Below are positions 9,197-32,281 of a stretch of 62,718 nt of DNA, piece after piece. Source of the DNA: a bacterium (GTDB lineage: Bacteria; CG2-30-53-67; CG2-30-70-394); NCBI GenBank assembly GCA_036393335.1, contig DASWHD010000093.1, positions 1 to 62,718 of the forward strand. The letters are read 5' to 3'. How positions within the stretch are numbered: position 1 is the stretch's first letter; the number at the start of each line of letters is the position of its first letter. The notes under the pieces are model-generated. The model saw nothing but the letters and a program-made list of their open reading frames with translations. It was not told where the DNA came from and did no database searches. The position numbers and the translations under genes were made by a program.

Positions 9197-9679
9197 CTAC
9201 TCCCCGCGGGGCTTGTCCAGGGTGTGGGCGATCTCCGCCTGACGCTCCGCGAAGTCGAAGGGCTTGAAGGTGGGGCTCTTCTCGTTGTGGCACCCCTTGC
9301 AGGTCTCTTCGGTCGGCATGACCATGCCCGCGGCGACCGCCTTCTCGGTGGTGTACTCCTTCTTCTTCATCATCACCTTGCGGTAGTCGGAGCCGGGGCC
9401 GTGGCATGCCTCGCACTGGACGTTCTTCATCTCCTCGGCCACCGGACCGGAGCCGGGATAACCGGTGGCGTGACAGGCGATACACTCGGGGTTCTCCGCA
9501 TCGGCGCCCTGGAGCACGGAGAAGGCCTGGGCGTGTTTGGTGGTCTCCCACTTCTCATGGGCCTTCTTGTGGCACATCTTGCACTTGCCGGCGCCCACGT
9601 AGTCGGCGGCGTTCGCTTGGGTCGGAACGACCACACAGACCATCACCAGGCAGGCGGCAATCGACACGAGCAATTTCAT
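9197..9679 (-). CDS. Tetrahaem c-type cytochrome (secreted)
   Basis: 4 CXXCH motifs (CKMCH, CIACH, CEACH, CKGCH). Signal peptide MKLLVSIAACLVMVCVVVPTQANA. ATG 9679 is preceded by GGAGGAG. Confidence 0.85.
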   Translation of the reverse strand: MKLLVSIAACLVMVCVVVPTQANAADYVGAGKCKMCHKKAHEKWETTKHAQAFSVLQGADAENPECIACHATGYPGSGPVAEEMKNVQCEACHGPGSDYRKVMMKKKEYTTEKAVAAGMVMPTEETCKGCHNEKSPTFKPFDFAERQAEIAHTLDKPRGE

Positions 9680-9850
9680 ACGGGGCTCCTCCAGTGGTTG
9701 TGGCGCTGGGCGCCGAATGGGTGCATTCCCTGGGTATGGTCGGTGGTTGGGCAAGGCCACCCCGAGGAAGAAGAACGTGCCATTAAATTGGAAACGCCCT
9801 GCTCACGCAACGGGTTGCTCGTTTGCAGAGTTCCCCAATTTACTCAGGAA

Positions 9851-10333
9851 TTATCGGGGAATGGCGTCGGTGATCCGGCACACGGTGCGGTAATACGTTT
9901 CCCAGTCGAGGCCTAGGGCGGCGGCGCCGAACGCCTCCCCCACCTCGCCGGTGGCAGCCTCACCGTAGTTGACCACCACCAACGCGTAGAGGATGGCGGC
10001 CGTCGCGTCGTCGGGACGCCGCTCCAGGTGGGGGTGGACATACATGGTGAAGCCATGGGTGGGATCGCCCTCCACCGGCAGGGGGTAGGCGAGCTCCTCG
10101 CCTTGTAACGGCTGTGCGTCGAACACCACATGCACCGGAAACCGCACCACGTCCGGGTCCTCCAGCAGCGCGAGCAGGCGCGGATAATCGAGCCGCCCCC
10201 CGGCACGATCGTGGAGCGCAGTCCCGGTGGCGGCCGCGTGGGCGAGCAGCGCCTGCCGGGCAGTCTCCGCGCTGACCGGCGGTTCCTCGGGGACGGTGCC
10301 GCACGGGCAGGTGGGGCAGGGATCTTGGCTCAT
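9851..10333 (-). CDS. Hypothetical protein with a Cys/Pro-rich N-terminus (CPTCPCG)
   Basis: ORF in the same strand run, between the NrfD-like gene and the tetrahaem gene. No family recognised. Start set at MSQD to avoid overlap with the upstream gene. Confidence 0.45.
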   Translation of the reverse strand: MSQDPCPTCPCGTVPEEPPVSAETARQALLAHAAATGTALHDRAGGRLDYPRLLALLEDPDVVRFPVHVVFDAQPLQGEELAYPLPVEGDPTHGFTMYVHPHLERRPDDATAAILYALVVVNYGEAATGEVGEAFGAAALGLDWETYYRTVCRITDAIPR

Positions 10334-10367
10334 GGTGGACACGGGCGCGCTGCTCGTCGGATGGTTC

Positions 10368-11600
10368 TCAGCCGTGCGGCTTGTAGGTGACACCGCCGAC
10401 CTCGATCTGGATGGCGATCTTGGCCAGCATGGTGAAGATCAACGCGCCGAGGGCCCAGATGGCGATCGAGATCACCACCTCGGGGTTCGACGGCCAGTAC
10501 TCGAAGACCTCCCCCAGGGAACTGGGGATGAAGGCCGGAAGGACCAACCCCATGCCCTTTTCCGTCCAGATGCCGGCGAACAGCAACATGCACGCGATGT
10601 TCAGGGTCACCAGGTTTTTCCGCGTGCGCGGGATCATCAGTAGGACCGTCGCGATGACCATCGCCATCAGGGCGAGCCAGATATAGGGGCGCAGGAGGGC
10701 ATGGCCATGCAGACCGAAGTAGAGGTATTGCAGCGGCGCCTGGTGCGCCGAGGCGGAGTAGAAGACGGTAAAGATCTCCGATGCCGTGAAGAACAGGGAG
10801 ATGAGCATCGCCACCAGGATGATGTTGGCGATGCGGAACAGGGTCTCGTCCCGGATCTCAAACTCGTCGCCCGGGCTACCGTACGGGGTGTAGCGGCGTA
10901 CGATCTGCACGATGATGATGATCAGCGCCGGGCCGGCGGCGAAGGCCGTGGTGAGAAACCGCGGCGCCATCAAGGCAGTATTCCAGAACGGACGGGAGAC
11001 CATGCCGCAATAGATGAAGGCGGTCACCGTATGGATGCTCACCGCCCACGGGATCGACAGGTAAGTAAAGGGCAGCAGGACCTTCTTGTTCGGTTCTTTA
11101 TGATGGAAACGGCTGTAGAGCATGTAGCCGGGGATGAACATGTTGATGAACAGATAGCCGCTGAGCACCAGCACGTCCCAGGTGAGCAGCGACCCGGGAA
11201 AGTTCGGCCAGCCGATGACCGGCAGCAGGTGCCACACCCGATCCGGCCGGCCCATGTCCACCATGACGTAGATGATGCACATGATCAGGGCGGAGCTGGC
11301 GAGCATCTCCCCCAACAGGGTGACCGGCTTGAAGTCCTTGTACCCGTAGAGATACGCCGGGATGACGATCATCACCGCCGCGGCCGCCACACCCACCAGG
11401 AAGGTGAAGTTGGCGATGTAGGAGCCCCACACCACCTGGTCGCGCAGGCCGGTCACGATCAGGCCGTAGCGGAGCTGGTAGAGGTAGTAGTAGCCGCCTA
11501 CCATCGTGATCGAGAGCAGGGCGAGCAGCCAGGCGTAGTACCGGCGGCTGCCCGTAAGGGCGATCTTCACGGAGGCGAGGAGGAAGGTCAGTAGTTTCAT
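10368..11600 (-). CDS. NrfD/PsrC-family integral membrane quinone-interacting subunit (410 aa)
   Basis: Highly hydrophobic polytopic protein immediately downstream of a Tat-signal FeS subunit. Its size matches the DsrP/HmcC/ActC-type NrfD proteins. Confidence 0.8.
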   Translation of the reverse strand: MKLLTFLLASVKIALTGSRRYYAWLLALLSITMVGGYYYLYQLRYGLIVTGLRDQVVWGSYIANFTFLVGVAAAAVMIVIPAYLYGYKDFKPVTLLGEMLASSALIMCIIYVMVDMGRPDRVWHLLPVIGWPNFPGSLLTWDVLVLSGYLFINMFIPGYMLYSRFHHKEPNKKVLLPFTYLSIPWAVSIHTVTAFIYCGMVSRPFWNTALMAPRFLTTAFAAGPALIIIIVQIVRRYTPYGSPGDEFEIRDETLFRIANIILVAMLISLFFTASEIFTVFYSASAHQAPLQYLYFGLHGHALLRPYIWLALMAMVIATVLLMIPRTRKNLVTLNIACMLLFAGIWTEKGMGLVLPAFIPSSLGEVFEYWPSNPEVVISIAIWALGALIFTMLAKIAIQIEVGGVTYKPHG

Positions 11601-11608: not shown

Positions 11609-12577
11609 CTAGTCGATGAAGTAGAAGAACTTCGGGTGGGTCCCTAGCTCTTCCTTCAGACGGAAGACCCGTTTGGTGGCGATCAGCTTGCGGATCTCGC
11701 TCTCCGGGTCCAGGAGGTTGCCGAATTTCCGCGCCCCCACTGGACACGACTCGACGCACGCGGGGTAACGGCCGGTGCGGCTGCGTTGAATGCAGAAGGT
11801 GCACTTCTCCATGGTCCCCTTGAATCGCGGCCGGTTACCGATGTAGTGCATGTCGGGATTAATTCCTCCAGCGTGATAGGTGGGGGTGGTCCAGTTGAAG
11901 CGGCGCGCGAAGTACGGGCAGGCGGCGAGGCAGAAGCGACAGCCGATGCACCAGTTGTAGTCGACCACGACGATCCCGTCCTTTTCCTGCCAGGTGGCGT
12001 GGGTCGGACACACCTTGACGCACGGCGGGTTCTCGCATTGTTGGCACTGCACCGGCATGTAGTAGTACGCCGGGTCCGGGACCTTCTCGTGCTCGTAGTA
12101 GTGGTGGCTACCCTCGATCTCCATCGAGCCTTTCTCGATCTCCAGCACCCGAATCCACTCCATCATGGGATCGCGCGACTGGTTGTTCTCACCGACGCAC
12201 GCCTTCACGCACCTCCGGCAGCCGACACATTTACCAATGTTCAGGGCGTAGGCCCACAGCACCCCCTCCGGCGCCGGCACGGTGGAGATGGTGATGCGGT
12301 CGTCGTGGAATCGTTCGCGATAGAGCTTCTCCAGATAGGCGACGCGCTGTTCGACCTCGGCGGGGCTCATCTCCACAAAGTGGTGCAGGCAAAAGTCCTC
12401 CTTGGAGAAGATCTGCGGGACGTGCAGGAGGTCCTTGGGCAGCAAGGTCAGTGCCGCCAGGGCGGCGGTGCCCTGCCCCGTGCGGCGCAGGAAATCACGG
12501 CGCGAGACCCGCTCCTGCGGCGGCCGCAGCTCGATGGGCTGTGGCTCGGCGCAGCGGGGCTGCCTGGGCTCAGGCAT
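11609..12577 (-). CDS. Tat-exported 4Fe-4S ferredoxin-type subunit (NrfC/DsrO/HmcB-like)
   Basis: Twin-arginine signal SRRDFLRR. Multiple CxxCxxCxxxCP clusters (CVGCRRCVKAC, CQQCENPPCVKVCP, CIGCRFCLAACP, CTFC). Its ATG overlaps the upstream stop (ATGA). Confidence 0.85.
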   Translation of the reverse strand: MPEPRQPRCAEPQPIELRPPQERVSRRDFLRRTGQGTAALAALTLLPKDLLHVPQIFSKEDFCLHHFVEMSPAEVEQRVAYLEKLYRERFHDDRITISTVPAPEGVLWAYALNIGKCVGCRRCVKACVGENNQSRDPMMEWIRVLEIEKGSMEIEGSHHYYEHEKVPDPAYYYMPVQCQQCENPPCVKVCPTHATWQEKDGIVVVDYNWCIGCRFCLAACPYFARRFNWTTPTYHAGGINPDMHYIGNRPRFKGTMEKCTFCIQRSRTGRYPACVESCPVGARKFGNLLDPESEIRKLIATKRVFRLKEELGTHPKFFYFID

Positions 12578-13320
12578 CAGTCTCTCCTCCCGAAGGCCGC
12601 ATAGGCGGCGAGACCCACGAAGGCGAAGACGCCGAGGGCGACGACGAATGGCAGGTCCGGGGCCGCGGGGGGCGCGGCCGGATAATCTTCCGCCGGCTCC
12701 AGCGGCACCAGCTTGAACTGCGGATCGTGGGGGTTGTGGCAGCCGGTACAGATGCGCGCCGGTTTGGGCTCGCTCAACGTACCCACCCAGCGGCCGTGGA
12801 GACGGTTCTGCCAGTCGCGATAGATCGGCCCGTGGCATTGGCCGCACAGGCGTGGGGCCTCACCCCAAGGGATCTGTTCGCCATTGAAGAGCTGCAGCAC
12901 GTTGCGTTTGTTCGCGCTGTGGCAAGTGAGGCACCAGAAGGCGCCCTTGCCGTGCTTGAGGTCCTTGTCATCGTGCGGGTCCTCCAGCTTGCGCGGTGTC
13001 GGATCGACCTCCCACGTCTCGTCGTGGCAATCGGTGCAGGTTCCCTCTTCGAAGCGGAACGGCTCCTGGAAATCGCCCTCCAGCCACCCGTCGAGGGTGC
13101 CGTTCTCCTGGTAGTAGAGACCGGCCGGGCCCGGCACACGGATATCCTCGGGATGGCAGACCACACAGCCCTGGCCGGTCTTCTCCGCCATGGCGACGGT
13201 GGCGTGCGCCTGGCCTCCCGCCAGCAGGAGCAAGGAGATGCACAGGGTGGAGTGGAGCACGACGCGGGCACGGCGCGCTGATCGTGGAGGGAGAGGCAAG
13301 GGCGCGCGGGGCAGGTTCAT
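12577..13320 (-). CDS. Pentahaem c-type cytochrome with a C-terminal membrane anchor
   Basis: 5 CXXCH motifs (CVVCH, CTDCH, CLTCH, CGQCH, CTGCH). N-terminal signal and a C-terminal hydrophobic helix (FVVALGVFAFVGLAAYAAF). Confidence 0.85.
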   Translation of the reverse strand: MNLPRAPLPLPPRSARRARVVLHSTLCISLLLLAGGQAHATVAMAEKTGQGCVVCHPEDIRVPGPAGLYYQENGTLDGWLEGDFQEPFRFEEGTCTDCHDETWEVDPTPRKLEDPHDDKDLKHGKGAFWCLTCHSANKRNVLQLFNGEQIPWGEAPRLCGQCHGPIYRDWQNRLHGRWVGTLSEPKPARICTGCHNPHDPQFKLVPLEPAEDYPAAPPAAPDLPFVVALGVFAFVGLAAYAAFGRRD

Positions 13321-13340
13321 GGGGGAAACGGTGGCTTGGC

Positions 13341-14153
13341 TCACTCGGTCTTCTTCTGCAGGGACTCGCGATGCGCCCGTCTCTTCTCCTCCAGCTTGGC
13401 CTGCTCGATCTCCCGCTCCTTTTGCCGGAGGCGGTTGAGGATCGCGTCCGAGGTGTCCTGCGCCTGGTCGAGGTTGAAGGTGTGCCAGGCGATGCGCTGG
13501 TTCTTCACCTGCTCGTAGAAGGGCACCATCTCCTGCGGCTGGCCAATCGACTCGTAGTACGCTCCAACCCACTTCAGGTAGCTGCTGATTATCATGTTGT
13601 GGCGGCGGATCTGGCGTGCTTTCTCGGGAAAGCCGGGGTGGTTCCCGGTCTCCTCGTTGTGGCAGCGCTCACACACCGTGGCGATCTTCGACGGGGTAAG
13701 GACCGTCGTGTTGAGGGAACCGTGACAGGTGACGCAGTTCGGGCCGACGCCCTGCTCGGTGAGACGGCGGTAGTGCTTGCTCTGGGTGAAGCTATCGTAG
13801 ATCTCGGCGTGGCACCGGCCGCACACCTTGGGGATGTTCTTGTAGAAGACCTGGCTTCCGGGTAGCCCGGCTTCCAGCGCCTTACCGTGGGCCTGGTCCT
13901 TGTCGGCCGCCTGCGGGTCGCCTCCGTGGCAGTCGGAGCAGGTGACCCCATTGGCCGCGTGGCTGGAAGCGCTCCACTTCTGGAAGTAATCGAACAGCTT
14001 CTTGTTGCGTACCGCAAACGACGGGTCGCCGTGGCAGGTGACGCAACGATCCTCGGCGGCGGCCGCCACCGGGGCCGGGACTATCAGCACGGGCAAAACG
14101 ATCGCCGCCCACAGCGTCAGACCCAGGCGCGCTACTCGTCCGCTCACATCCAT
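13341..14153 (-). CDS. Pentahaem c-type cytochrome (secreted), first gene of the minus-strand operon
   Basis: 5 CXXCH motifs (CVTCH, CSDCH, CGRCH, CVTCH, CERCH). N-terminal signal-like hydrophobic segment. Confidence 0.85.
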   Translation of the reverse strand: MDVSGRVARLGLTLWAAIVLPVLIVPAPVAAAAEDRCVTCHGDPSFAVRNKKLFDYFQKWSASSHAANGVTCSDCHGGDPQAADKDQAHGKALEAGLPGSQVFYKNIPKVCGRCHAEIYDSFTQSKHYRRLTEQGVGPNCVTCHGSLNTTVLTPSKIATVCERCHNEETGNHPGFPEKARQIRRHNMIISSYLKWVGAYYESIGQPQEMVPFYEQVKNQRIAWHTFNLDQAQDTSDAILNRLRQKEREIEQAKLEEKRRAHRESLQKKTE

Positions 14154-14234
14154 AGTTGTGCCCTTTCTCCGGTCGTGCGCCGGTCTGTCCCGGGGCGCAC
14201 GCGCTCCCCTCCGAGCCGGGAATAATAAATTTCT

Positions 14235-14249
14235 GCAAATGCCTTGCCA
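14235..14249 (-). promoter_or_regulatory. Sigma-54-type -24/-12 promoter candidate (TGGCAA-N5-TTGC)
   Basis: The minus strand reads ccTGGCAAGGCATTTGCag. GG-N10-GC spacing is correct, with one mismatch to TGGCAC-N5-TTGC. It lies about 80 nt upstream of the ATG at 14153. Confidence 0.45.
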
Positions 14250-14675: not shown

Positions 14676-14690
14676 TGGCACATGCTTTGC
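14676..14690 (+). promoter_or_regulatory. Sigma-54-type -24/-12 promoter candidate (TGGCAC-N5-TTGC)
   Basis: The plus strand reads gtTGGCACATGCTTTGCg, an exact match to the core consensus. It lies about 100 nt upstream of GTG 14788 and about 365 nt upstream of ATG 15056. Confidence 0.55.
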
Positions 14691-14787: not shown

Positions 14788-15015
14788 GTGATTACCCTCA
14801 AGGTCGTGGTCCTCGCGCTGGTCCATATCGCGCTGCTGGTCGTCATGGGCGGGACCCTGGTGAGCATCATGAGCAGCGACGTGAGGTTCACCGACGAAGC
14901 CGGTTTGACCTGGCACAAGGGCGCGGCTAGCCGGGCAGCGGTGAAGGCGACGATCTGTTTCCTCGCCTTCTGCGCCTACCTCTTCATGATCATCAACTTC
15001 AAGTTCGTCGGGTAG
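14788..15015 (+). CDS. Possible small two-helix membrane protein (75 aa, GTG start)
   Basis: Hydrophobic ORF preceded by GGAGG, lying between the sigma-54-like element and the FeS gene. No family recognised. Confidence 0.3.
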   Translation: MITLKVVVLALVHIALLVVMGGTLVSIMSSDVRFTDEAGLTWHKGAASRAAVKATICFLAFCAYLFMIINFKFVG

Positions 15016-15055
15016 CCGCGCCCCGGTACCGGCGGCCCCACCGGGAGTCAACCGC

Positions 15056-15706
15056 ATGGCCTTTGAGGTGAACAACGGCGCGCGCAACGGCGCGCGCAAA
15101 GTCCGGTACGGGATGCTGGTGGACCTGCGTCGCTGCGTCGGCTGCCAGTCGTGCTCCGTGGCCTGCAAGAGCGAAAACGAGGTGCCGCTCGGTAAGTTCC
15201 GTACCTGGGTGAAGGTAATCGAGAAGGGCCGTTATCCGGACGTCAGCCGGCAGTTCCTGCCGATCATGTGCAACCAGTGCGAGAAGCCGATCTGCAACCG
15301 CAACTGCCCGGTCAAGGCGACCTACGTGCGCGACGACGGCATCGTCGAGGTCAACCCCCATCGCTGCATCGGCTGCATGTACTGCATGGCGTCGTGCCCG
15401 TACGACGTGCGCTACATCAACCCGCTGCGCAAGATCGTACAGAAGTGCAATTGGTGCGCGCACCGCCTCGATGCGGGGTTGTTGCCGGCCTGCGTCGAGA
15501 CCTGTCTGGGCCGTGCCCTGGTGTTCGGCGACATCAACGACCCGAACAGCGAGATCTCGCAGCTCCTGGCGACCAATCCGGTGGTTACCCTGAAGGCGGC
15601 TCTCGGGACCGAACCACACTGCTTTTACATCGGGGCGGACGCGGACGCCATGGATCCCACCAAGGGCGTGGACATCAACCACCTGCACTTCCACGAGCCG
15701 TATTAG
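15056..15706 (+). CDS. 4Fe-4S ferredoxin-type subunit (PsrB/TtrB/NrfC-like, no own signal peptide)
   Basis: CVGCQSCSVACK, CNQCEKPICNRNCP, CIGCMYCMASCP and CNWC...C cluster motifs; 216 aa. Confidence 0.9.
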   Translation: MAFEVNNGARNGARKVRYGMLVDLRRCVGCQSCSVACKSENEVPLGKFRTWVKVIEKGRYPDVSRQFLPIMCNQCEKPICNRNCPVKATYVRDDGIVEVNPHRCIGCMYCMASCPYDVRYINPLRKIVQKCNWCAHRLDAGLLPACVETCLGRALVFGDINDPNSEISQLLATNPVVTLKAALGTEPHCFYIGADADAMDPTKGVDINHLHFHEPY

Positions 15707-15707
15707 T

Positions 15708-15811: not shown

Positions 15812-16750
15812 ATGGACGTCGGAAGCCAAGTGACGGTGCTCTACAACGCGCCGTACCAGATGCCGTTTCAGCTCCCCATCGCGCAGTACTTCTACTTCAC
15901 GGGTCTGTCGGCTGGCTCGTTCGTGGTATCGGTGATCGCGGTCCTCGGCGGCAAGACCGAATACAAGCCCCTGGGCCGGATCGGCGCGATTCTCGCGCCC
16001 CTGTGCCTGATCCTGGCGCCGATGAACCTGCTGGTGGACATGACCCAGCCGCTACGGTTCTGGCACCTGATGACCTACCTGCCGGGCTACGTGAACTTCC
16101 GCTCGCCCATCACCTACGGCGTGATGCTCCTCACCTCCTATCCCATCTCGGCGATCGTCTACGCCTATTTCGTCTATTCGGACAACCTCAAGTGGTCGAA
16201 GATCATGGCGATCATCGGCATCCCGCTGGCGATCGCCGTGCACGGGTACACCGGCTTCATCCTCGCCTTGGGGAAGGGCCGCGCCCTGTGGAACACGGCG
16301 CTGATGCCGACCCTGTTCATCGTCTCCGCGATGGTGTCGGGCATCGCCTTGATGATCATCATGGCGGTGATCCGCAACCTGTGGATGATGCGCGACGAGA
16401 CGCCGGAGGCGCGGCAAAAGGACGCCCAGCTCATCTGCGGCCTGGGCAACTTCCTCGGGGCGGCGATCGTCGCCGATCTCTTCCTCCTGTTTAACGCGGT
16501 GTTGGTGATCTTGACCTCCAGCCAAGAGGCGTTCCACGCGGCGGAGCTCCTCCTCTGGGGCCACTTCGCCCCCGAATTCATCGGCGTCGAGCTGATCATC
16601 GGCGCCCTGATCCCGCTGGTCATCGTCTTCTACCCGAAGACCAAGCGCTCGTTCGCTTGGCTGAGCCTGGCCTCGGTGATGACCATGGTCGGCATCTTCG
16701 CGATGCGTTTCACGGTAGTGGTCGGGGGACAGTCAGTACCCCTTCACTGA
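15812..16750 (+). CDS. NrfD/PsrC-family membrane anchor subunit (312 aa)
   Basis: Polytopic hydrophobic protein in a PsrC-like size class, between the FeS subunit and the molybdopterin subunit. Confidence 0.82.
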   Translation: MDVGSQVTVLYNAPYQMPFQLPIAQYFYFTGLSAGSFVVSVIAVLGGKTEYKPLGRIGAILAPLCLILAPMNLLVDMTQPLRFWHLMTYLPGYVNFRSPITYGVMLLTSYPISAIVYAYFVYSDNLKWSKIMAIIGIPLAIAVHGYTGFILALGKGRALWNTALMPTLFIVSAMVSGIALMIIMAVIRNLWMMRDETPEARQKDAQLICGLGNFLGAAIVADLFLLFNAVLVILTSSQEAFHAAELLLWGHFAPEFIGVELIIGALIPLVIVFYPKTKRSFAWLSLASVMTMVGIFAMRFTVVVGGQSVPLH

Positions 16751-20347: not shown

Positions 20348-20767
20348 ATGAACCGACACCTCCTACGGGCTGCATGCCTTGCGTTCCTCCTCCTCGGTGC
20401 CTGCTCGTCGCCGAGCCCCGAGGGGCCGCCCAACACCGACTTCGGGGGCAAGTGGAGTGGCGCCGCGTACAAGACCGGCAGTGCCAATCCGAGCTTCACC
20501 CTTGATTTGGAGCAGTCCGCCGACGCCGTGAGCGGGACGATCAGCTCCGGGGACGGAACCTTTCAGGCGGTAGCGTTAGAGGACGTGCACATCGAGGAGG
20601 ATGGCGGCCTGATCTTCCGCGCCCGGGCCAACGGCGGCTCACAGTTCAAGGACCACCTCTTTCTGTTCGACGCCCACCGCAAGGGCAACACCCTGGAGGG
20701 CACCTGGACCGACATCCTCCAGGGGGCCCAGGGGCCGTTCACCCTGTACGCCGGCGAGGGGCACTAG
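20348..20767 (+). CDS. Putative lipoprotein, unknown function
   Basis: Signal peptide with lipobox LLGAC. Last gene of the plus-strand run. Its TAG stop is the flank of MITE copy C. Confidence 0.5.
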   Translation: MNRHLLRAACLAFLLLGACSSPSPEGPPNTDFGGKWSGAAYKTGSANPSFTLDLEQSADAVSGTISSGDGTFQAVALEDVHIEEDGGLIFRARANGGSQFKDHLFLFDAHRKGNTLEGTWTDILQGAQGPFTLYAGEGH

Positions 20768-25414: not shown

Positions 25415-25954
25415 CTATTGCGCGCGACCGCTCAATAGGCTCCCGGCGAGCACCAGCAGCTCTTCGGATGACGATCGCATCTGTATGTCGATCCAGAGAT
25501 CTCCCTCCATGAAGGTGATTTTGCTGCACGGCTCGCCATCGTCGCAGAATCCGCTCTCGACGACCGATTCCCGCCCCTTCAGGTTGACCGACGAAGCCTG
25601 CCTGACGCGCTTGAGGCGGATCTGTGGCCGCTGCTGCAACCGTCGAGACGACGTCTGGGTGATAACCAGCGCGACCTCCTGAGAATCCACGCGATGGAAC
25701 TCCATGACCACCGCAGCAAAGGGTTTGCTCTGCGCCAGCACGCGTGATGGAGGCCACACGAGCGTCTTCGGGAAATAGGCCGGCACGTAGATCTTTGCGA
25801 TCCCGAGCGTTGCCTGAGCCTCGGCGATGCTGGCATAGCGACGGACTGTCCCCGGTTGAAAAGCGCCCGGAAGCCAGTCGATGAGCTTCAGGGCGACGAT
25901 CAGCACAACGGTAAAAAAAAGGAAGGTCGGAAGCGAAATGGCATGCCGGCGCAT
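25415..25954 (-). CDS. Hypothetical membrane-anchored protein (179 aa)
   Basis: N-terminal TM helix. Starts 22 nt downstream of the M56-like peptidase gene. Lies in the lower-GC patch. No family recognised. Confidence 0.5.
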   Translation of the reverse strand: MRRHAISLPTFLFFTVVLIVALKLIDWLPGAFQPGTVRRYASIAEAQATLGIAKIYVPAYFPKTLVWPPSRVLAQSKPFAAVVMEFHRVDSQEVALVITQTSSRRLQQRPQIRLKRVRQASSVNLKGRESVVESGFCDDGEPCSKITFMEGDLWIDIQMRSSSEELLVLAGSLLSGRAQ

Positions 25955-25975
25955 GACACCTCCAAGCAGGCGGTT

Positions 25976-27007
25976 TCACATCACGTAATAGTTGATAGCA
26001 AGGATCACCACCACCACGATGACCCAGACCAATGGCCATTCTCCTTCACGTTCGTTATCGACGTGCCGGAGGCGCCTGATCCTTTCCGCAATGTGTAGCC
26101 TATGGCTGTGTGCTTCGAGTGCCGATCGTAGATCGGAAAGTCGTTCTACGTGAAATGATTCGGGCACTTCGTGCTCCTGAAGGAGCCTCTGTAACGCCAC
26201 GGCGAGGGCCTCGGGCTTCTTGGTCCACGAGACCGCGACATCGTCGCAGATATCCTCCTCCGCATGGACAATCTTGCGAAACTCGATCAGAGTGATCGGA
26301 TTGAAGAACATAAGGACTCGGAGAAGAAATAGCATCACCAGCGCAGAGCTCTGGCTCCTCCTGATATGTGCTAGCTCGTGCGTGATGGCCGCTTGCAGCT
26401 CGTCGTGAGTCAGCAGTGCTTGGATCCCTCGGGATACGTAGATCGTTGCTCCCGATCCCGTCGTGGAAAAGATCAATGGCTCGTCGGCCTCGAGCAGTGC
26501 GATGTGTGGTTTCTCACCAGGTATCCCCTGTAACACATCGCTCATGACGCTGCCTTCCACTGGGGAAATCCGTCGGTATCCGGCCGTGGCCGATCCGAGC
26601 AGGTGGCGCACGATCGGAATCAGCTCCTGGACAAAAAAAATCACTGCCGTGAAGGCCAGCAGTAGGAAAAACAACGCATAGAGTGGGACGCCCTGACAGA
26701 GATCGAGGTATAGCCAGTCGTCGGTATTCAAGAGGGCGTCGAGGCGGGATGACATCGTTCCGCGGTGGGGGTCGATGAGCTGGTAGGCTGGGAAGGCAAG
26801 AACCGGGAGGAGGATCACGAGCGTCCGGAGTCGCTGCTGAACGATGGGCTGGTCGATCCCCCACGCCCGCAGGGCGCTCTCCACCACGATCGCGGCGGTC
26901 AAGGAGTGACACACCGACTGAATCAGGTATCTTCCGGGCAGGGTGAGGAGGAGATCGGAGAGGGACATTTTCTTTTCCGGATTCTCAGGAGGCCGCTGGG
27001 TTGCCAT
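25976..27007 (-). CDS. M56/M48-type (BlaR1-like) membrane zinc metallopeptidase
   Basis: Several TM helices and a HELAH (HEXXH) zinc motif in the BlaR1-like context ...LQAAITHELAHIRR. Confidence 0.72.
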   Translation of the reverse strand: MATQRPPENPEKKMSLSDLLLTLPGRYLIQSVCHSLTAAIVVESALRAWGIDQPIVQQRLRTLVILLPVLAFPAYQLIDPHRGTMSSRLDALLNTDDWLYLDLCQGVPLYALFFLLLAFTAVIFFVQELIPIVRHLLGSATAGYRRISPVEGSVMSDVLQGIPGEKPHIALLEADEPLIFSTTGSGATIYVSRGIQALLTHDELQAAITHELAHIRRSQSSALVMLFLLRVLMFFNPITLIEFRKIVHAEEDICDDVAVSWTKKPEALAVALQRLLQEHEVPESFHVERLSDLRSALEAHSHRLHIAERIRRLRHVDNEREGEWPLVWVIVVVVILAINYYVM

Positions 27008-27096: not shown

Positions 27097-27216
27097 CTTA
27101 TTAACGGGAGCGGAAAATGTTTGAAGCCTTCATAGAGGGAATTGCTGACAATCTCGCCGCTCCAGTGTCTCTCTTGGCGATGGCGCCATAAAACATTTTC
27201 CGCTCGGGTTAATAAG
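27097..27216. repeat. 26-bp inverted repeat (2 mismatches) flanking 68 bp
   Basis: CTTATTAACGGGAGCGGAAAATGTTT at 27097-27122 and its near reverse complement at 27191-27216. Lies in the divergent region between the peptidase gene and the kinase gene. Confidence 0.7.
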
Positions 27217-27357: not shown

Positions 27358-29193
27358 ATGCAAAAACGGATCATGCTCATCGTCGTCATGAGCATGCTTA
27401 TCATATTTGTCGGCCTCGGTGTGGTCAGCTATCTCAGCGTACGCCTCAGTATCAAGAGCTCGTTAGATGCGCGTCTAACCCTCGCAGAAATCATCAGCGA
27501 ATATTTCGATCATGTGGTCGAAAGCAACCTTACCAGGCTCTACGACATGTCGATCACTGGTAAGTTCGATCTGCGAGACAACGACTCGGATCCAGAGTTG
27601 AGCGCTGTTAGAACGGCATACGAGTACTCCATATTCACCGATGGAATCTTTGTGCTCGATCGTCGCGGTACGCTGATTCTCGGCTATCCCTATCGGGAGG
27701 AGCCAGGGCTCAGCTTCCTGAGCATGCCGTACGTGAGCCGGGCCATCGCGGAGGGGAAGCCGGTCATCTCGGACGTCTACACGGAGGAAATGACGCGGAA
27801 AAAGTTGATCTATGCGTTGGTTCCTTTGCGGGACAAGGACGGGGAGACCATCGGACTCGCAGGGGGCGAGATCAGTCCGACCAACTATGCGTTTTCCCGG
27901 GTCATCCAGGCGATACCTCTGCAGCCGTCGCGCCTCATCGAACTGATCGACAGTCACGGCATCGTCATCGCGTCGAGTGATGCCCGCCGGGTCCTTACCC
28001 GCACGGATCACAACGAGTTCCTCGGCAATCTGATCCATCAGAAGAAGAGTATCGTTGGTACGTGCCATCGCTGTCACGAGGAGGAAGCGACGGGAGCGCA
28101 TCGGACGGAAGATACGCTCGCCTTCGCGCCCCTGTCTTTAGCGCCGTGGGGAGTTGCAGTCCGCGAGCGACGGGCGATCGTCTTCGCGCCATCGACCGAC
28201 CTGAAGATGTGGTTCGCCATCCTCGGTCTCATATCGCTGGCCACGGCGTTGTTGCTGTCCATCGGGCTGAGCCGCAGCATCGTACGTCCCGTACGGGAGC
28301 TCGCCTGGGCGACCAAGAGGATCGGGGAGGGCAATCTTTCGCAGCCAGTCGCGGTGGAGAGCACGGACGAACTCGGATCGCTTGCGCGTAGCGTCGACGA
28401 GATGAGGGTCAGACTGGCCGACTCCCTGCAGAGTATCCAGCGCCAGAACTTGGTGCTCGAACAGCGGGTCGCCGAGCGGACACGGGACTTGGCAGCGAGC
28501 CGCGAGAAGCTTTGCCAGTTGCTCAAGAGGGTATTCACGGCGGAGGAAGAGGAGCGAAAGCGGGTCGCCAGGGAGCTCCACGACGACACGAGTCAGGCGC
28601 TGAACGGCATCCTGATGTCACTCGATGCGGTGCGGTTCGCCGTCTCTCCGGACGACCCAGTGCAGGTGCGCCTCGCCACGATCCGGGAACACAGTCTGGC
28701 GACCCTGCAGGGACTCCATCGGTTGATTCGGGACCTTCGTCCGCCGGTGCTCGACGATCTCGGGCTCGAGTCGGCGATCCGCTGGGTTCTGGAGAGCCGC
28801 CTCCGGGACCGGGGTATCGACTACGGCCTGGAGGTGGATGCCAGCTGGCAAGAACACGCGGCCCGCTCGGACCTGGGCCTGGGGCGCGCAGAGCTCGAGG
28901 TACTGCTGTTCCGTGTCATTCAGGAAGCGGTTACCAACATCGTCAAACACGCGCACGCGACGCACGTGCGGGTGACCCTTCGTCTGGAGGGTGCTCTCTG
29001 GGTACTGCGAATCCAGGATGACGGTGTTGGATTTGATACGGATAGCCTGGCCCGCGATGCCGGCGACGGCGCGGACCTGGCCGGTTACGGAATCCTTGGT
29101 ATGCAGGAGCGCGTGGCACTCGTCGATGGCGAGATGACCATCCGATCGGGCCCCGGAGCGGGGACAGAGATCACGGTCGTGGTGCCGGTTTAG
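27358..29193 (+). CDS. Sensor histidine kinase (periplasmic Cache-like domain with a CXXCH motif, HAMP, HisKA_3, HATPase)
   Basis: Two TM helices bracket a domain of about 255 aa that contains CHRCH (nt 28063-28077). H-box ELHDDTSQAL is typical of NarX/DegS-type HisKA_3 kinases. C-terminal ATPase boxes are present. Confidence 0.85.
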   Translation: MQKRIMLIVVMSMLIIFVGLGVVSYLSVRLSIKSSLDARLTLAEIISEYFDHVVESNLTRLYDMSITGKFDLRDNDSDPELSAVRTAYEYSIFTDGIFVLDRRGTLILGYPYREEPGLSFLSMPYVSRAIAEGKPVISDVYTEEMTRKKLIYALVPLRDKDGETIGLAGGEISPTNYAFSRVIQAIPLQPSRLIELIDSHGIVIASSDARRVLTRTDHNEFLGNLIHQKKSIVGTCHRCHEEEATGAHRTEDTLAFAPLSLAPWGVAVRERRAIVFAPSTDLKMWFAILGLISLATALLLSIGLSRSIVRPVRELAWATKRIGEGNLSQPVAVESTDELGSLARSVDEMRVRLADSLQSIQRQNLVLEQRVAERTRDLAASREKLCQLLKRVFTAEEEERKRVARELHDDTSQALNGILMSLDAVRFAVSPDDPVQVRLATIREHSLATLQGLHRLIRDLRPPVLDDLGLESAIRWVLESRLRDRGIDYGLEVDASWQEHAARSDLGLGRAELEVLLFRVIQEAVTNIVKHAHATHVRVTLRLEGALWVLRIQDDGVGFDTDSLARDAGDGADLAGYGILGMQERVALVDGEMTIRSGPGAGTEITVVVPV

Positions 29194-29469
29194 CCCGAAT
29201 CGATTCCCGTCCCTCGGCTGCGCTCGCGCCATCGGCGCACGTCTGATGGACCTGTCCTCGACGCGGGCCAGCAGCGAGAGGCCGGGGACGAGGAGTGACC
29301 GTCAGCCCGTGGGCTGGTCTCTGCAGCGCTTCCTTACCATGGCGCGACCCGTCCCTCTCCCCTGCCCAGTGTGCCTGCGGGCATGGCCTTACGAGCCGGC
29401 CATGGCGGCCGGCTGGTGCTCACGGCGAGTCGCGGTCACGATGCGGGCGACTGTGAAGCGGGAGCCGCA

Positions 29470-30111
29470 ATGATCAAGATCCTTATCGCGGACGACCACG
29501 CCCTGGTCAGGGAGGGCATCATCGCCCTGTTGAGTCCCCATAATCAGATTCAGATCGTCGGCACCGCCGCCAGCGGGCAGGAGGCAATCGAAAAGGCGGG
29601 CAAGCTCCACCCGGACATCATCCTGATGGACATCGCCATGCCCGGACTGGGGGGGCTCGAGGCGACGCTCGAGATCCGCAAGACACACCCAGAAATCAAG
29701 ATCCTGGTCCTCAGCCAGTACGACGACAAAGAGTACGTCAGTCGTCTGTTCAAGGCGGGGGTCTCAGGTTACATCCTGAAACATGCGGTAGGCACCGATC
29801 TAGTCTCCGCCATCCGCGCCGTATACCGCGGGGAGTGTTACCTCTATCCGGCGATCGCCGCGGGGGTCGTCGATGGCTACCTCGGCCGCAGCACGATCGA
29901 CGTCGACGACCCTTACGAGAGCCTGAGCGACCGCGAAAAACAGGTGCTCAAGCTGATCGCGGAGGGGTGCAGCCATAAGGAGATCGCGACATTGCTCGAT
30001 ATCAGCGCCAAAACCGTAATGGCGCACCAGACCAATCTCTCCGAGAAGCTGGGCCTCCGATCGCGTGCGGCGCTCATCCGATTCGCCATCCACAAGGGCA
30101 TCGTCAAATAG
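29470..30111 (+). CDS. NarL/FixJ-family response regulator (REC + LuxR-type HTH)
   Basis: MIKILIADDH...DIILMDIAMPG receiver motifs and a C-terminal LSDREKQVLKLIAEGCSHKEIA HTH. Start moved to ATG 29470. Confidence 0.9.
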   Translation: MIKILIADDHALVREGIIALLSPHNQIQIVGTAASGQEAIEKAGKLHPDIILMDIAMPGLGGLEATLEIRKTHPEIKILVLSQYDDKEYVSRLFKAGVSGYILKHAVGTDLVSAIRAVYRGECYLYPAIAAGVVDGYLGRSTIDVDDPYESLSDREKQVLKLIAEGCSHKEIATLLDISAKTVMAHQTNLSEKLGLRSRAALIRFAIHKGIVK

Positions 30112-30123
30112 ACGGTGCTCCTG

Positions 30124-30888
30124 TCAACCCTGCGGAAGGTGCGGCGGCTCGTCATCCACGGTGGCGTGACCGCTGTCGTGGTGGGCGCCGAGGAGCTCTG
30201 TGAGGGATTTCCCTTCGATCCGTGCGAGCTCGACGGGGTGCTCGTGGAGCATCCGCTTGCGGGAAATCTTGCCGGTGAAGATCACCGTGTCGATCGGGAA
30301 GACCTCGGGACTGAAGACGGCGTTGTAGATGTGCCAGACGACGATGACCAGCAACGCGAGGAGTGCCTCGTTGGTGTGAAGGGCCTTGGCGATCGGGATG
30401 ACCTCGCCGGGCAGGAAGCGGACGACGAGGGTCGGAAACCACAGGGACAGGCCGGTTCCCGCCATCAGCATGCTGCCGATCACCACCCCCCAGTACTCGA
30501 ACTTCTGCTTGTAGTCATAACGGTCGCACAGGGCCGCATGGTTGGTAAGACCAAGGTAGTACTCGAGGTTGTCAATGACGTCCGCGAAGTCCTTCTTGTG
30601 GATGATCATGGTCGGCTGCCACCGCCGGACCAGGACGCCGTATACGGCGGTCAAGACGTGCACCGAGGTCAAGATGATGAGGGCGAAACCGGTGATACGG
30701 TGGATGATCCGAACGGAGTCGATTCCTCCGAGAATCTCGATCAGCCACTGGGATGTCGCGGCGTCATGGAACTTCTGCGATAGGCCGGTCACGACCAACA
30801 CCACGAACACCGTGGCGTTCAACCAATGCTCGGTGATGCGCAGCGGCCCGAGCCGCCGGAGATAGGTGGTGTTGTTTGTCCGGTTCAC
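30124..30888 (-). CDS. Dihaem b-type cytochrome, FdnI/HydC/PhsC family membrane subunit
   Basis: Four or more TM helices with conserved His positions (ITEHWLNA, IHRITGF, HTNEALLAL, WHIYNAVF). Immediately downstream of a 13-haem cytochrome gene. Confidence 0.78.
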   Translation of the reverse strand: MNRTNNTTYLRRLGPLRITEHWLNATVFVVLVVTGLSQKFHDAATSQWLIEILGGIDSVRIIHRITGFALIILTSVHVLTAVYGVLVRRWQPTMIIHKKDFADVIDNLEYYLGLTNHAALCDRYDYKQKFEYWGVVIGSMLMAGTGLSLWFPTLVVRFLPGEVIPIAKALHTNEALLALLVIVVWHIYNAVFSPEVFPIDTVIFTGKISRKRMLHEHPVELARIEGKSLTELLGAHHDSGHATVDDEPPHLPQG

Positions 30889-30901
30889 GGTTCCTCCCCG
30901 G

Positions 30902-32281
30902 TCATCTGTTGATGGCGTACCGCCAGATGTGGAGCAGAATCTGAAGCCCCAGCCCGATGACCATGAACGGAATGAAGATCTTGTAGGCCAGGTTTACCAG
31001 GAACACGCCCGGTGCCTTGTCGAAGCTCGCCTCGTAGTGAGAGACCCAGCTATCGGGGAAGTTGGCCGTGGCATCGGGATGGCATTTCTGGCAACGCTTG
31101 ACAAGGTTCGCCTTGACTGCCGGTGATCCGGGAGCGGTGATCTTTGCGATGTCGTGGATGCCGTGGCAGTCGGTGCAGGTCGCGATCGGACGCAGGTCCC
31201 CCTCTTTCTTGTAGAAGCGGAGGGTGACGCCGTGGAAGTCCTGGACATAGCTCTCCACCACTTGTGTGGAGAGGCCGTACTTTCCGGCGATGCGGCTATT
31301 GGAGTGACAGTTCCCGCAGATCTCCGGGATCGTGAGGTGGAACTCGGCGGTTGTCGGGTCCGGGATGTCGTGAGCGCGATGGCAGTCGGAACACACCGGC
31401 ACATCCTCGTTGTGCTCCGAGAGCATTGCGGCGCCATGGACACTCTCTTTGTACACCACGTAGATGTCCTCATGGCATTGCGCGCAACGCCGGGCGTTCA
31501 CCACCTTCTCCAGGCGTCCCGTCGCGATGGCATGGGCACCGTGGCAATCCACGCACACGGGGGCATCCTGGCGCCCCGAAGAGAGCAGCTCGTAATGGAT
31601 ACTCTCTAGAGTGCGGGTGTATTTGTCGAAGTGGCATCGCCGGCACGTCTCCGCTGACGCCAACGTATGGTCCCGCGGCGAGCGAAAGCTCCGCTCCGGG
31701 TGTTCCTTGGCGGTGAAGCCGAAGTGACAATCGCGACAGCTCAGACGTTGATGGACGGAGTTGGCGAGATCCGCGGGGTTCATCTGCAGGGAGATCCGGC
31801 TGCCATCCCGCGTCGCCAGGTGCAGGGGTTGGCCGTGGCAACCGATACAGTAGAGCGTGTCGTGGAATGCGACGGCGACCGGTTGCACGGCGTGCGCGGT
31901 GTGGCAGTCAGTGCACACCACACGCCTACCCTCCTGTTCCAACAGGGTCCGGTGGATGCCCTGGAATTCGGAGTGGCAGCTTTCGCAAACCCGTGACCAG
32001 AACTGCGAGTGCGCGCTCCGGTCGGGGAACACCTGCGTGGGATGGTCGTCCCCGGTGAAGGACGTATGGCAATCCTGACAGTCCAGGGTGGCGTGGACCG
32101 ACCCTTCAAGCTGGTGGCGATCGACAAAGAGGGAGAGTGTCGCGCCGTTCGCGAACGCGGTGCTCAGGTCGTCGCTGCCATGGCAATCGAGGCACTGATC
32201 CGCCGCGGATGCATATCCGCCGCTGACCAACGCCCAGAGGCTGAGACTCAGTGCCGTGAGGATGATCTTGGGATGCTTCAC
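30902..32281 (-). CDS. 13-haem c-type cytochrome with a C-terminal membrane helix
   Basis: 13 CXXCH motifs. Signal peptide after GTG 32281, which is preceded by GGGAGGG. C-terminal helix FIPFMVIGLGLQILLHIW. The longer ORF to 32368 starts inside MITE copy D. Confidence 0.85.
   Translation of the reverse strand: MKHPKIILTALSLSLWALVSGGYASAADQCLDCHGSDDLSTAFANGATLSLFVDRHQLEGSVHATLDCQDCHTSFTGDDHPTQVFPDRSAHSQFWSRVCESCHSEFQGIHRTLLEQEGRRVVCTDCHTAHAVQPVAVAFHDTLYCIGCHGQPLHLATRDGSRISLQMNPADLANSVHQRLSCRDCHFGFTAKEHPERSFRSPRDHTLASAETCRRCHFDKYTRTLESIHYELLSSGRQDAPVCVDCHGAHAIATGRLEKVVNARRCAQCHEDIYVVYKESVHGAAMLSEHNEDVPVCSDCHRAHDIPDPTTAEFHLTIPEICGNCHSNSRIAGKYGLSTQVVESYVQDFHGVTLRFYKKEGDLRPIATCTDCHGIHDIAKITAPGSPAVKANLVKRCQKCHPDATANFPDSWVSHYEASFDKAPGVFLVNLAYKIFIPFMVIGLGLQILLHIWRYAINR

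Follow-up and report, generated by a model that had tools for sequence, protein, structure and literature searches.

A stretch of bacterial DNA of 62,718 nucleotides, called the window here (contig DASWHD010000093.1 of assembly GCA_036393335.1), contains a block of respiratory genes of about 23 kb. The block runs from the end of gene A6 to the called start of gene D1, and its transcription units are named A to D (Table 1). It encodes seven multihaem cytochromes c, together with iron-sulfur (FeS) proteins, membrane subunits, a subunit of the molybdopterin family and an outer-membrane (OM) barrel. The window is a metagenome contig that is present in several ENA and JGI assemblies.

Open reading frames (ORFs) were detected by a six-frame scan of the window with filtering on G+C content at third codon positions (GC3). 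Seven of them hold 63 CXXCH haem motifs, distributed as 4, 5, 5, 12, 13, 11 and 13, which reproduces exactly the counts given in an earlier note on this DNA. Within the cytochrome ORFs the motif occurs once per 36 residues; the chance expectation, calculated from how often Cys and His occur in the window proteins, is 0.07-0.2 in about 17,000 residues. Only one other real gene of the window carries a CXXCH, and it encodes a histidine kinase.

The remaining parts listed in the earlier note were also recovered. Pfam and NCBIfam searches found two FeS/NrfD pairs (A3 with A4, and B2 with B3). Domain searches found one FdnI-type cytochrome b (D2, Ni_hydr_CYTB/FdnI-like), one molybdopterin-family subunit (B4) and a two-component system of a dCache-HAMP-HisKA_3 kinase and a LuxR/NarL regulator. 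The single OM barrel (C2) was recognized by its signal peptide, an AlphaFold model and Foldseek matches. Between operons C and D lies a unit of an M56 protease and a 179-aa membrane protein (x179), followed by the kinase and the regulator.

Table 1. Genes, transcription units and promoter elements in and beside the block (positions in the window; motif counts refer to CXXCH)
Feature	Position	Strand	Description
Block	9197-32281		A6 end to called D1 start
Cytochrome ORF	9197-9760	-	4 motifs
Cytochrome ORF	12577-13572	-	5 motifs
Cytochrome ORF	13341-14153	-	5 motifs
Cytochrome ORF	19131-20309	+	12 motifs
Cytochrome ORF	21223-22455	-	13 motifs
Cytochrome ORF	24081-25031	-	11 motifs
Cytochrome ORF	30902-32368	-	13 motifs
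Operon A	14153 to 9197	-	A1-A6
A1	13341..14153	-	periplasmic 5-haem cytochrome c with signal peptide; leads operon A
A2	12577..13320	-	5-haem cytochrome c with C-terminal transmembrane anchor
A3	11609..12577	-	four-cluster FeS protein exported by twin-arginine translocation (TAT), DsrO/NrfC-like
A4	10368..11600	-	NrfD-family membrane subunit of the long (~410 aa) DsrP-like type
A5	9851..10333	-	conserved hypothetical protein without transmembrane segment; Cys-rich N-terminus
A6	9197..9682	-	soluble periplasmic 4-haem c554-like cytochrome; candidate periplasmic shuttle
Sigma-54-like -24/-12 element, operon A	14235..14249	-	TGGCAAGGCATTTGC, one mismatch
Sigma-54 -24/-12 promoter, operon B	14676..14690	+	TGGCACatgctTTGC, exact consensus
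Operon B	14788 to 20767	+	B1-B6
B1	14788..15015	+	75-aa membrane protein, two predicted hydrophobic helices
B2	15056..15706	+	four-cluster FeS subunit, PsrB/TtrB-like, without own signal peptide
B3	15812..16750	+	NrfD/PsrC-type membrane subunit, 8 predicted helices
B4	16812..19121	+	TAT-exported Psr-like subunit of the Mo/W-bis(pyranopterin guanine dinucleotide) (bisPGD) family, without canonical Mo ligand
B5	19131..20309	+	12-haem cytochrome c with N-terminal membrane helix
B6	20348..20767	+	small lipoprotein, lipobox LLGAC
Operon C	25031 to 21223	-	C1 (11-haem), C2 (barrel), C3 (13-haem lipoprotein)
C1	24081..25031	-	11-haem cytochrome: N-terminal helix, NrfH/NapC-type tetrahaem quinol-dehydrogenase domain, 7 further haems
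C2	22424..23746	-	OM beta-barrel, 440 aa, signal peptide, C-terminal ...VYNF
C3	21223..22392	-	13-haem lipoprotein cytochrome, LAAC lipobox; putative OM partner of C2
x179 and M56	25415..27007	-	separate unit: x179 (membrane-anchored, periplasmic) and M56/BlaR1-like membrane metalloprotease
Two-component system	27358-30111	+	kinase and regulator
Sensor histidine kinase	27358..29193	+	dCache-HAMP-HisKA_3
Response regulator	29470..30111	+	NarL/LuxR-type, Response_reg and GerE domains
Operon D		-	two small membrane proteins, D1, D2
D2	30124..30888	-	FdnI/HydC-type b-type cytochrome membrane subunit
D1	30902..32281	-	13-haem cytochrome c with signal peptide and C-terminal membrane helix with conserved His
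Two small genes upstream of D1	32645..33408	-	paralogous single-helix membrane proteins

The helix of C1 spans residues 17-35, and the motif of its haem 1 is of the CXXCHXM form (CNQCHVM, residues 48-54). The NCBIfam NrfH model is covered from position 11 to 134 of 138, at 51.6 bits (cut-off 134.2); Pfam Cytochrom_NNT scores 19.5 bits, under its cut-off of 24.1, and the best PDB match is NrfH (2J7A_C, E 2.6e-7). The apparent kinship of C1 to NapC/NirT/NrfH is thus of superfamily level only. All 11 motifs are conserved in position in 6/6 relatives, one of them from Chloroflexi, and the haem-1 CXXCHXM is kept in the comparison loci L008, L010 and L023, whose proteins are 31-38% identical (one Chloroflexi). 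The earlier note had counted two NapC/NirT-like anchors. C1 is clearly NrfH-like and the 12-haem B5 weakly so, and the 4-haem A6 turned out to be c554-like and to carry no anchor.

The AlphaFold model of C2 shows about 22-24 strands (predicted local distance difference test, pLDDT, 80; predicted template modelling score, pTM, 0.70), and its best Foldseek matches are 24-strand ushers and porins. A profile search found 303 representative clusters at E<=1e-30 and 1147 at E<=1e-3, most of them of 400-450 aa; the metagenome scan for the barrel used an alignment of 9 closer sequences. In all of the at least 11 homologous loci examined, multihaem cytochrome genes adjoin the barrel gene. In some members of the family the barrel is itself fused to cytochrome domains, either a monohaem class I cytochrome c at its N-terminus or multihaem ones at its C-terminus. 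Two remote barrel relatives (P0333 and P0335) have the N-terminal monohaem class I cytochrome c, which is a Cyc2-like fused architecture. C2 has no CXXCH motif of its own and is therefore not a Cyc2-type fusion.

The third protein, C3, keeps 13/13 motifs in 3/3 orthologues, including that of the L018 lineage at 51% identity. Its PDB matches are ActA and the Geobacter dodecahaem cytochrome GSU1996. Association and architecture support C2-C3 as a putative porin-cytochrome pair. The layout agrees with the description of the Pcc type in Geobacter (Pcc/Ext): a barrel of some 20 strands or more, a multihaem lipoprotein and a periplasm-facing 11-haem cytochrome, which is anchored here in the inner membrane.

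Several known systems can be compared with operon C. As in Shewanella CymA and MtrCAB, a quinol dehydrogenase of NapC/NirT/NrfH type is encoded with a barrel and a multihaem cytochrome, although C1 has 11 haems (the tetrahaem domain plus 7) where CymA has 4. C2-C3 resembles MtoAB and PioAB of Fe(II) oxidisers in being a two-component unit of barrel and cytochrome. C2 is, however, smaller than MtrB/PioB (about 440 aa and 22-24 strands, against about 700 aa and 26 strands), and C3, with 13 haems and a lipobox, differs from the cytochromes of MtrCAB, MtoAB and PioAB, whose decahaem models score far under their cut-offs. Within the same phylum, the porin-cytochrome clusters of 'Candidatus Manganitrophus' and other Nitrospirota have been proposed to serve electron uptake from Mn(II)/Fe(II) (PMC9040806). 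Compared with the Manganitrophus porin-dodecahaem (PCC) and Cyc2 systems, and set apart by description, the present block has four quinone modules and a Mo/W-pterin subunit in addition.

Operon A begins with A1, which has 5 CXXCH, Pfam Cytochrome_C7/c3_2 matches and an orthologue in L007 of 90% identity, also with 5 motifs. A2, whose length of 247 aa follows the gene call on sister contigs, combines 5 CXXCH with a hydrophobic C-terminal helix. The FeS protein A3 has a twin-arginine motif (SRRDFLR), a Fer4_11 match and an NCBIfam DsrO score of 180.8 bits, under the 200-bit cut-off. A4 matches Pfam NrfD at 122 bits and, at 402.7 bits, exceeds the 350-bit cut-off of NCBIfam DsrP. No family match was found for A5 in Pfam and NCBIfam searches; it is 72% identical to its counterpart at the same position in L007.

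A6, the last gene product of this operon, begins with a signal peptide that would be cleaved at ...QANA/AD. It matches Pfam Cytochrome_C554 at 48.3 bits (cut-off 20.8) and Cytochrom_NNT at 20.7 bits, under 24.1. Because of the cleavable signal peptide, the c554 family match and the sub-cut-off NapC/NirT score, a role as NapC-type anchor was ruled out and A6 is taken as a soluble carrier. A further match (E 5.5e-25) is to the NCBIfam model 'UshA-like (seleno)protein', in its C-terminal 117 residues, and a c554-like tetrahaem domain is therefore common to A6 and the UshA-like family.

Modules of a cytochrome, an FeS protein and a 10-helix NrfD protein, as DsrMKJOP, NhcABCD and HmcABC are taken to be here, likewise pair multihaem cytochromes with an FeS/NrfD dimer. 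Operon A, unlike these, combines its FeS/NrfD pair with two pentahaem cytochromes and one tetrahaem protein that is c554-like. A domain search of the operon found no DsrM (cytochrome b), DsrK (HdrD-like) or trihaem DsrJ. Since these are absent, operon A is best described as a cytochrome-FeS-NrfD module of apparent DsrOP/Nhc/Cbc4 type and not as a Dsr complex. Geobacter Cbc4 (CbcSTU) has the same layout of cytochrome, 4x[4Fe-4S] protein and integral membrane subunit, with 4 haems in CbcS as against 5+5 in module A.

Operon B combines a Psr-like pterin subunit with a 12-haem cytochrome. Its first gene, B1, precedes the FeS gene in L007-L010 as well, with 50-86% identity. B2 scores 230.7 bits with NCBIfam TtrB, under the 416-bit cut-off, and 84 bits with Fer4_11; B3 matches Pfam NrfD at 160 bits. 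B5 has a weakly NrfH-like N-terminal domain and an ActA-like middle part, and its PDB matches are ActA of alternative complex III (ACIII; E 2e-6) and NrfH (E 6e-4). All of its motif positions (12/12) are kept in 9/9 orthologues. The lipoprotein gene B6 follows B5 in L007-L009, L026 and L027. The four-gene unit of module B was found in at least six phyla, namely Nitrospirota, Nitrospinota, Chloroflexota, Armatimonadota, Planctomycetota (Brocadiia) and that of one unassigned genome, and is often accompanied by an 11-12-haem NrfH-like cytochrome.

The pterin-family subunit B4 has the domains Molybdop_Fe4S4, Molybdopterin and Molydop_binding and a TAT signal (RRQLFK). Its nearest solved structure is PsrA of T. 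thermophilus (237 bits). Where PsrA has Cys173, ArrA a Cys and PcrA an Asp, three independent references, B4 has Gly-Gly, and the ligand column is occupied by G, S, Y or T across 118 B4 homologues. Other features of the clade are nearly invariant. The pterin-binding motifs are retained (D in 117/118, R in 118/118 and G-T-D in at least 94%), as are the Cys of the FS0 cluster (C-x2-C-x3-C...C, 118/118), and the Lys that follows the fourth of these Cys is almost invariant. An Asn-Lys pair 3-4 residues past the ligand position is present in 112 and 104 of the 118 homologues, respectively.

None of the characterised families compared accommodates module B. Its scores remain below the cut-offs of all equivalog models for PhsA (340 of 694 bits), TtrA (119 of 1750), TtrB (231 of 416) and TtrC (48 of 314), and of those for QrcA (19.5 of 180), QrcB (176 of 440), QrcC (123 of 400) and QrcD (27.9 of 570); with the NCBIfam Arr equivalog models they are likewise far under the cut-offs. 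The module resembles PsrABC/PhsABC/TtrBCA in that B4 is nearest to PsrA and has the FS0 motif, the pterin-binding motifs and the TAT signal, in its gene order of FeS, membrane and catalytic subunit as in ttrBCA, and in the 8-helix PsrC-type B3. It differs from them in having Gly-Gly for the Mo-ligand Cys, and in the 12-haem cytochrome, which is a constant fourth subunit of module B across phyla.

Two interpretations of B4 can be considered. In the first, module B would be no enzyme at all but a cytochrome c:quinone oxidoreductase like Qrc or ACIII, with B4 as a cofactor-less scaffold in the manner of QrcB and ActB. The set of subunits is that of QrcABCD, with an anchored multihaem cytochrome (B5), a ligand-less Mo-like protein (B4), an FeS protein (B2) and an NrfD protein (B3). 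ActA-like haem domains occur in both B5 and C3, the Mo ligand has given way to Gly-Gly at a position that is not conserved across the clade, and operon B is without a TorD/NarJ-type chaperone. Against such a scaffold, the near-invariance of the pterin motifs, FS0 Cys, Lys and Asn-Lys pair over the 118 homologues is the pattern of a cofactor site. B3 also has 8 helices, as with catalytic Mo enzymes, and not the 10 of the Qrc/Act type, and all Qrc models in NCBIfam stay far under their cut-offs. The gene order of module B (B-C-A-cytochrome) is unlike that of Qrc/ACIII, and in contrast to ACIII (ActABCDEF) the module is without ActD, ActE and ActF and its Mo-like and FeS parts are unfused. Such a scaffold is held to be rather unlikely. 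A Mo-oxidoreductase/NrfD cluster described in PMC10732223 is an ordinary ACIII.

In the second interpretation, B4 binds its cofactor. Its sequence pattern suggests an enzyme that binds a cofactor through non-canonical coordination, rather than a decayed scaffold of QrcB/ActB type. Arsenite oxidase offers a parallel, as the pattern in B4 is that of a cofactor site without protein ligand. No description of a ligand-less Psr-like clade was found in the literature searched. That an uncharacterised Mo/W-bisPGD family without protein ligand, plugged at this locus into an OM porin-cytochrome, constitutes a new class of respiratory enzyme can be offered only as a tentative suggestion, and one that is unlikely to hold in full.

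Operon D pairs a cytochrome c with a cytochrome b. The N-terminal part of D1 is DmsE/MtrA-like (69.6 bits, against a cut-off of 192; PDB match MtrA 6R2Q_A). Its C-terminal sequence QILLH[IMV]WRY is kept in L033 and L034, which both have 13 motifs, and is conserved in Thermodesulfovibrio. D2 matches Pfam Ni_hydr_CYTB at 55.7 bits, and five transmembrane residues, His21, 63, 77, 171 and 186, are each present in 121-123 of the 123 sequences compared, which makes them invariant or almost so. The two small paralogues upstream of D1 share 39% identity and have the same position in L034; a family search gave no match for either, and they possibly belong to operon D. In Geobacter CbcBA, too, a multihaem c subunit with a His-bearing C-terminal helix stands beside a b-type subunit with conserved His, the latter described as a four-helix protein. 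D1 has 13 haems as against 7 in CbcA, and module D is paired with a NarL-type two-component system, not with a sigma-54 activator of BccR type.

The 64th CXXCH of the window is the CHRCH of the kinase (residues 236-240). It lies in the periplasmic dCache domain between two transmembrane helices and is kept in L007 and in the Thermodesulfovibrio orthologue, which suggests that the kinase may be a haem-c redox sensor with covalently bound haem.

The earlier note had called the housekeeping synteny of this genome gamma/beta-proteobacterial. The host instead belongs to Nitrospirota, and so do all genomes of its relatives. ClpX, IspE, DAHP synthase and the porin each fall into a 90%-identity cluster with one Nitrospirota-labelled NCBI metagenome-assembled genome (MAG); a genome scan with the pterin subunit B4 gave eight loci, all in Nitrospirota/Nitrospirae MAGs. 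D2 has hundreds of relatives at 60-70% identity, and those with a named organism are all Nitrospirota, including Thermodesulfovibrio. As the housekeeping and block proteins alike cluster with proteins of Nitrospirota MAGs, a gamma/beta-proteobacterial origin was ruled out.

The entire order of the block is kept in the nearest species (L007/L034, 70-97% aa identity), where it reads phosphoglycolate-phosphatase-like flank-A-B-C-x179-M56-kinase-regulator-D. At about 70% porin identity, L026 and L027 keep HK-M56-x179-C1-C2-C3-B6-B5-B4 (HK, histidine kinase). Adjacency thus extends to at least three further species-level relatives, at 60-97% aa identity, and the comparison proposed in the earlier note shows the order to be kept as a unit in several species. 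Haem motif numbers are fully conserved in orthologues, with conserved positions in C1, B5 and C3 down to 31% identity, and no module qualifies as a member of the nrf, ttr, psr, qrc or dsr systems. The outcomes that the earlier note had named as refuting its observation thus did not come about.

Codon usage of operons A-D matches that of the flanks, with a codon distance of 0.05-0.09 for the cytochrome operons. A profile of the block against its flanks, also proposed beforehand, finds A-D host-like, and x179, M56, the kinase, the regulator and the two small genes upstream of D1 deviating. Since codon usage is host-like and the order is kept in relatives, the block appears native and conserved and is no recent island. 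Recent horizontal acquisition was rejected as unsupported, on the grounds of the host-like A-D codons and of the same block with the same left flank in relatives.

The operons do not share one type of promoter. The sigma-54-like element of operon A lies 82 nt upstream of the A1 start codon and has an equivalent in L007. That of operon B lies about 100 nt upstream of B1 and recurs at the same distance in L007, L008 and L010, the four genomes spanning 44-64% G+C. No sigma-54 element was found upstream of D. A sigma-70-like element is conserved upstream of C1; in the window as a whole, a scan for the sigma-70 consensus is at background, with 5 sites against 3.9 expected. The window encodes no sigma-54 activator, as judged by the absence of the GAFTGA motif, and no RNA family was found in it with Rfam. 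Geobacter cbcBA resembles operons A and B in its use of a sigma-54 promoter.

The two-component system had been described as dedicated to the block. Kinase and regulator are indeed present, but their ancestral link, as seen in Thermodesulfovibrio, is to the cytochrome c/b module D only. Service to A and B is unsupported because a regulator of NarL type cannot serve sigma-54 promoters.

Taken together, these features point, with moderate confidence, to a Nitrospirota extracellular electron-transfer network of porin-cytochrome type, fed by several quinone modules in the inner membrane. The anatomy can be read from the genes themselves, and the flow of electrons is inferred from it. Electrons would be exchanged between quinol and a periplasmic haem network through one or another inner-membrane module. 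As candidate gates, module A has two pentahaem cytochromes with a TAT-exported FeS protein and a DsrP-like NrfD protein, and module B has PsrBC-type FeS/NrfD subunits with the Psr-like Mo/W-pterin subunit and the anchored 12-haem cytochrome. C1 has a quinol-dehydrogenase domain of NrfH/CymA-like, tetrahaem type with further haems that bring the total to 11, and module D a 13-haem cytochrome c with C-terminal anchor beside the FdnI-like cytochrome b. The periplasm could be crossed on C1, A1, A6 and B5, and the outer membrane through C3 seated in C2. Flow could run outward, with minerals as acceptors, or inward, with Fe(II), sulfide minerals or partner cells as donors. Expression would be split, with A and B read by way of sigma-54 and an activator encoded elsewhere, and D ancestrally paired with the kinase and NarL regulator.

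The earlier note had spoken of four entry or exit points for electrons side by side and had likened them to the Cbc systems of Geobacter. Four, arguably five, putative modules do lie beside the multihaem cytochromes and the OM barrel; they are of DsrOP-like FeS/NrfD, PsrBC-like FeS/NrfD, NrfH-like tetrahaem and FdnI-like cytochrome b types. The architectural parallel with Cbc4, CbcBA and Pcc is real as well, and the tuning to potential that the earlier note suggested is conjectural. A comparable path from quinone to surface leads from CymA to MtrAB in Shewanella and from Cbc/ImcH to Pcc in Geobacter, and the latter, with Cbc4, CbcBA, CbcL, ImcH and Pcc/Ext, also has several types of quinone module beside multihaem cytochromes. 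The host here is of a different phylum, Nitrospirota, and the modules stand in one 23-kb block where those of Geobacter are dispersed. The likeness to Cbc/Pcc is thus an analogy of architecture, not one of demonstrated membership.

A number of observations weigh against such a network, and the first group of them concerns the outer membrane. C2 has no family match in Pfam or NCBIfam, including MtrB/PioB (PF11854, TIGR03509). With the MtrA/DmsE model (TIGR03508, cut-off 192 bits), C1 scores 32.1 and D1 69.6 bits, and C3 gives no match. As a lipoprotein C3 could face the periplasm or the surface, and C1, with its 11 haems fixed to the inner membrane, would probably not span the distance to the outer membrane by itself.

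Some of these points would fit an alternative in which C2 serves as a common channel for diffusion or export and C3 as a periplasmic lipoprotein cytochrome, so that the system would be purely periplasmic and no electrons would pass the outer membrane. The structural matches of C2 are to ushers and general porins rather than to MtrB, its sequence gives no Pfam or NCBIfam match to MtrB/PioB, and lipoproteins face the periplasm by default. This alternative is nevertheless quite improbable, given that cytochrome genes flank the barrel in at least 11 loci, that cytochrome c domains are fused to it within the family, and that the lumen of a 22-24-strand barrel is broad enough for a haem chain.

The second group of observations concerns the separability of the modules. 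The unit of FeS, NrfD, pterin subunit and cytochrome occurs alone in Nitrospinae, Armatimonadota, Chloroflexi, Brocadiia and an unassigned 4.7-Mb genome, and D, co-directional with kinase and regulator, occurs alone in Thermodesulfovibrio. In L018, labelled Deltaproteobacteria, C2-C3 stands beside a different 8-haem lipoprotein, without A, B and D. Because B, C2-C3 and D are found separately elsewhere, the modules may serve different substrates. With sigma-54 elements at A and B and a NarL-type system tied to D, the block is under at least two regulatory regimes, and a k-mer comparison of the upstream regions of the four operons and of the kinase gene gave no convincing common motif.

The main rival to the network follows from this, namely that the modules are functionally independent respiratory systems and mere neighbours, without a common pathway. 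Module B would then be a periplasmic Mo/W enzyme that respires or oxidises some soluble compound, for instance one of sulfur, arsenic or selenium; A a cytochrome:quinone oxidoreductase of Nhc/Hmc/DsrOP type; C a stand-alone porin-cytochrome; and D a separate quinol:cytochrome module with its own two-component system. Independence is consistent with the single occurrence of each module in other lineages, with the different promoter types (sigma-54 at A and B, sigma-70-like at C1, a two-component system at D) and with an insertion site for mobile elements at the B/C junction, which tolerates disruption. It is harder to reconcile with the fact that at least three other species-level relatives, with 60-90% identity, share the order and adjacency of all modules, or with the C1-like cytochromes of NrfH type that accompany module B in distant Nitrospirota and in Chloroflexi. 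Multihaem cytochromes of the periplasm are moreover promiscuous, hence a separation of pathways is itself unlikely. Independent neighbours are accordingly held to be an unlikely explanation, though a serious one, and a network of several quinone modules that feed one conduit, or are fed by it, is preferred.

Mobile elements are frequent in and around the block. A family resembling miniature inverted-repeat transposable elements (MITEs) is present in seven copies of about 80-260 bp with 18-bp inverted termini (TAGCCCGCATTTCTCACC...GGTGAGAAATGCGGGCTA), at 189-393, 6294-6522, 20765-20969, 32359-32618, 37810-38016, 51016-51244 and 53749-53831. The window holds 14 such termini, against 0.01 expected. 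Two of the copies lie inside the block, one at the B6/C3 junction and one immediately upstream of D1. The terminus contains an ATG, and because of it D1 and the ORFs at 51025 and 53822 are given spurious, overlong starts ('MRA...'). In its exact 18-bp form the terminus was not found in loci of any other species.

In L003, a 99.7%-identical strain variant departs from the window exactly at a MITE terminus (position 20952), and its divergent part (12778-15148) carries genes for a 473-aa DDE transposase and a BrnT toxin. This element is probably the autonomous insertion sequence (IS) from which the MITEs derive, and the B/C junction probably an insertion hotspot. Another insertion, of 112 bp (27101-27212), with imperfect inverted termini of about 25 bp (TTATTAACGGGAGCGGAAAATGTTT ... 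AAACATTTTCCGCTCGGGTTAATAA), lies between the M56 and kinase genes. It is present in the window and L001 and absent from L002, L003 and L005, and it is a second MITE-like element unrelated to the first family.

The M56 protease itself matches Pfam Peptidase_M56 at 43.8 bits. The x179/M56 pair is kept in L007, L026 and L027, is atypical in composition (GC3 0.70-0.75, codon distance 0.14-0.16) and is closed by a strong terminator-like hairpin (25312-25281). On the other side of the block, a HAD phosphoglycolate-phosphatase-like gene (8222-8908) flanks operon A. In L018 a 66%-identical homologue of it (13133-13804) comes directly after the porin/13-haem pair, and this adjacency may point to a gain or loss of operons A and B in the interval from C3 to the phosphatase gene.

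About 6 kb from the block (38155-41713), a large protein with CcmH/CycH-like tetratricopeptide repeats (TPR) is encoded together with an AhpC/TSA-type redoxin. Such a pair is also found near porin-cytochrome genes in L018 (19805-21326), and the two proteins may be helpers of cytochrome c maturation. An 897-aa ORF at 53822-56515 shows PD-(D/E)XK nuclease similarity and has 74-79% G+C, the window mean being about 66%.

Porin-cytochrome clusters predicted in Nitrospirota and multi-module quinone networks in Geobacter are already known. No description of this gene cluster was found in the literature searched, and its most novel element is the module of ligand-less pterin enzyme and cytochrome, with its coupling to an OM conduit. 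If the tentative suggestion of a new enzyme class is true, B4 could turn over a substrate while trading electrons with both quinone and an extracellular partner, and module B would not be another Psr, Qrc or ACIII.

Subsurface and hydrothermal Nitrospirota are often inferred to depend on minerals, and their wiring is known from Cyc2 and a few PCC predictions only. The locus offers a compact, conserved and testable candidate for a pathway from quinone to the cell surface within 23 kb, and its 11-haem anchor of NrfH type, encoded immediately beside the porin pair, is unusual. The locus further reveals a widespread four-subunit complex of pterin enzyme and cytochrome, and a kinase with probable covalent haem. 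If the network is confirmed, the Geobacter-style concept of 'many quinone gates, one conduit' would reach a different phylum, and the genes described here would provide markers for metagenomic surveys.

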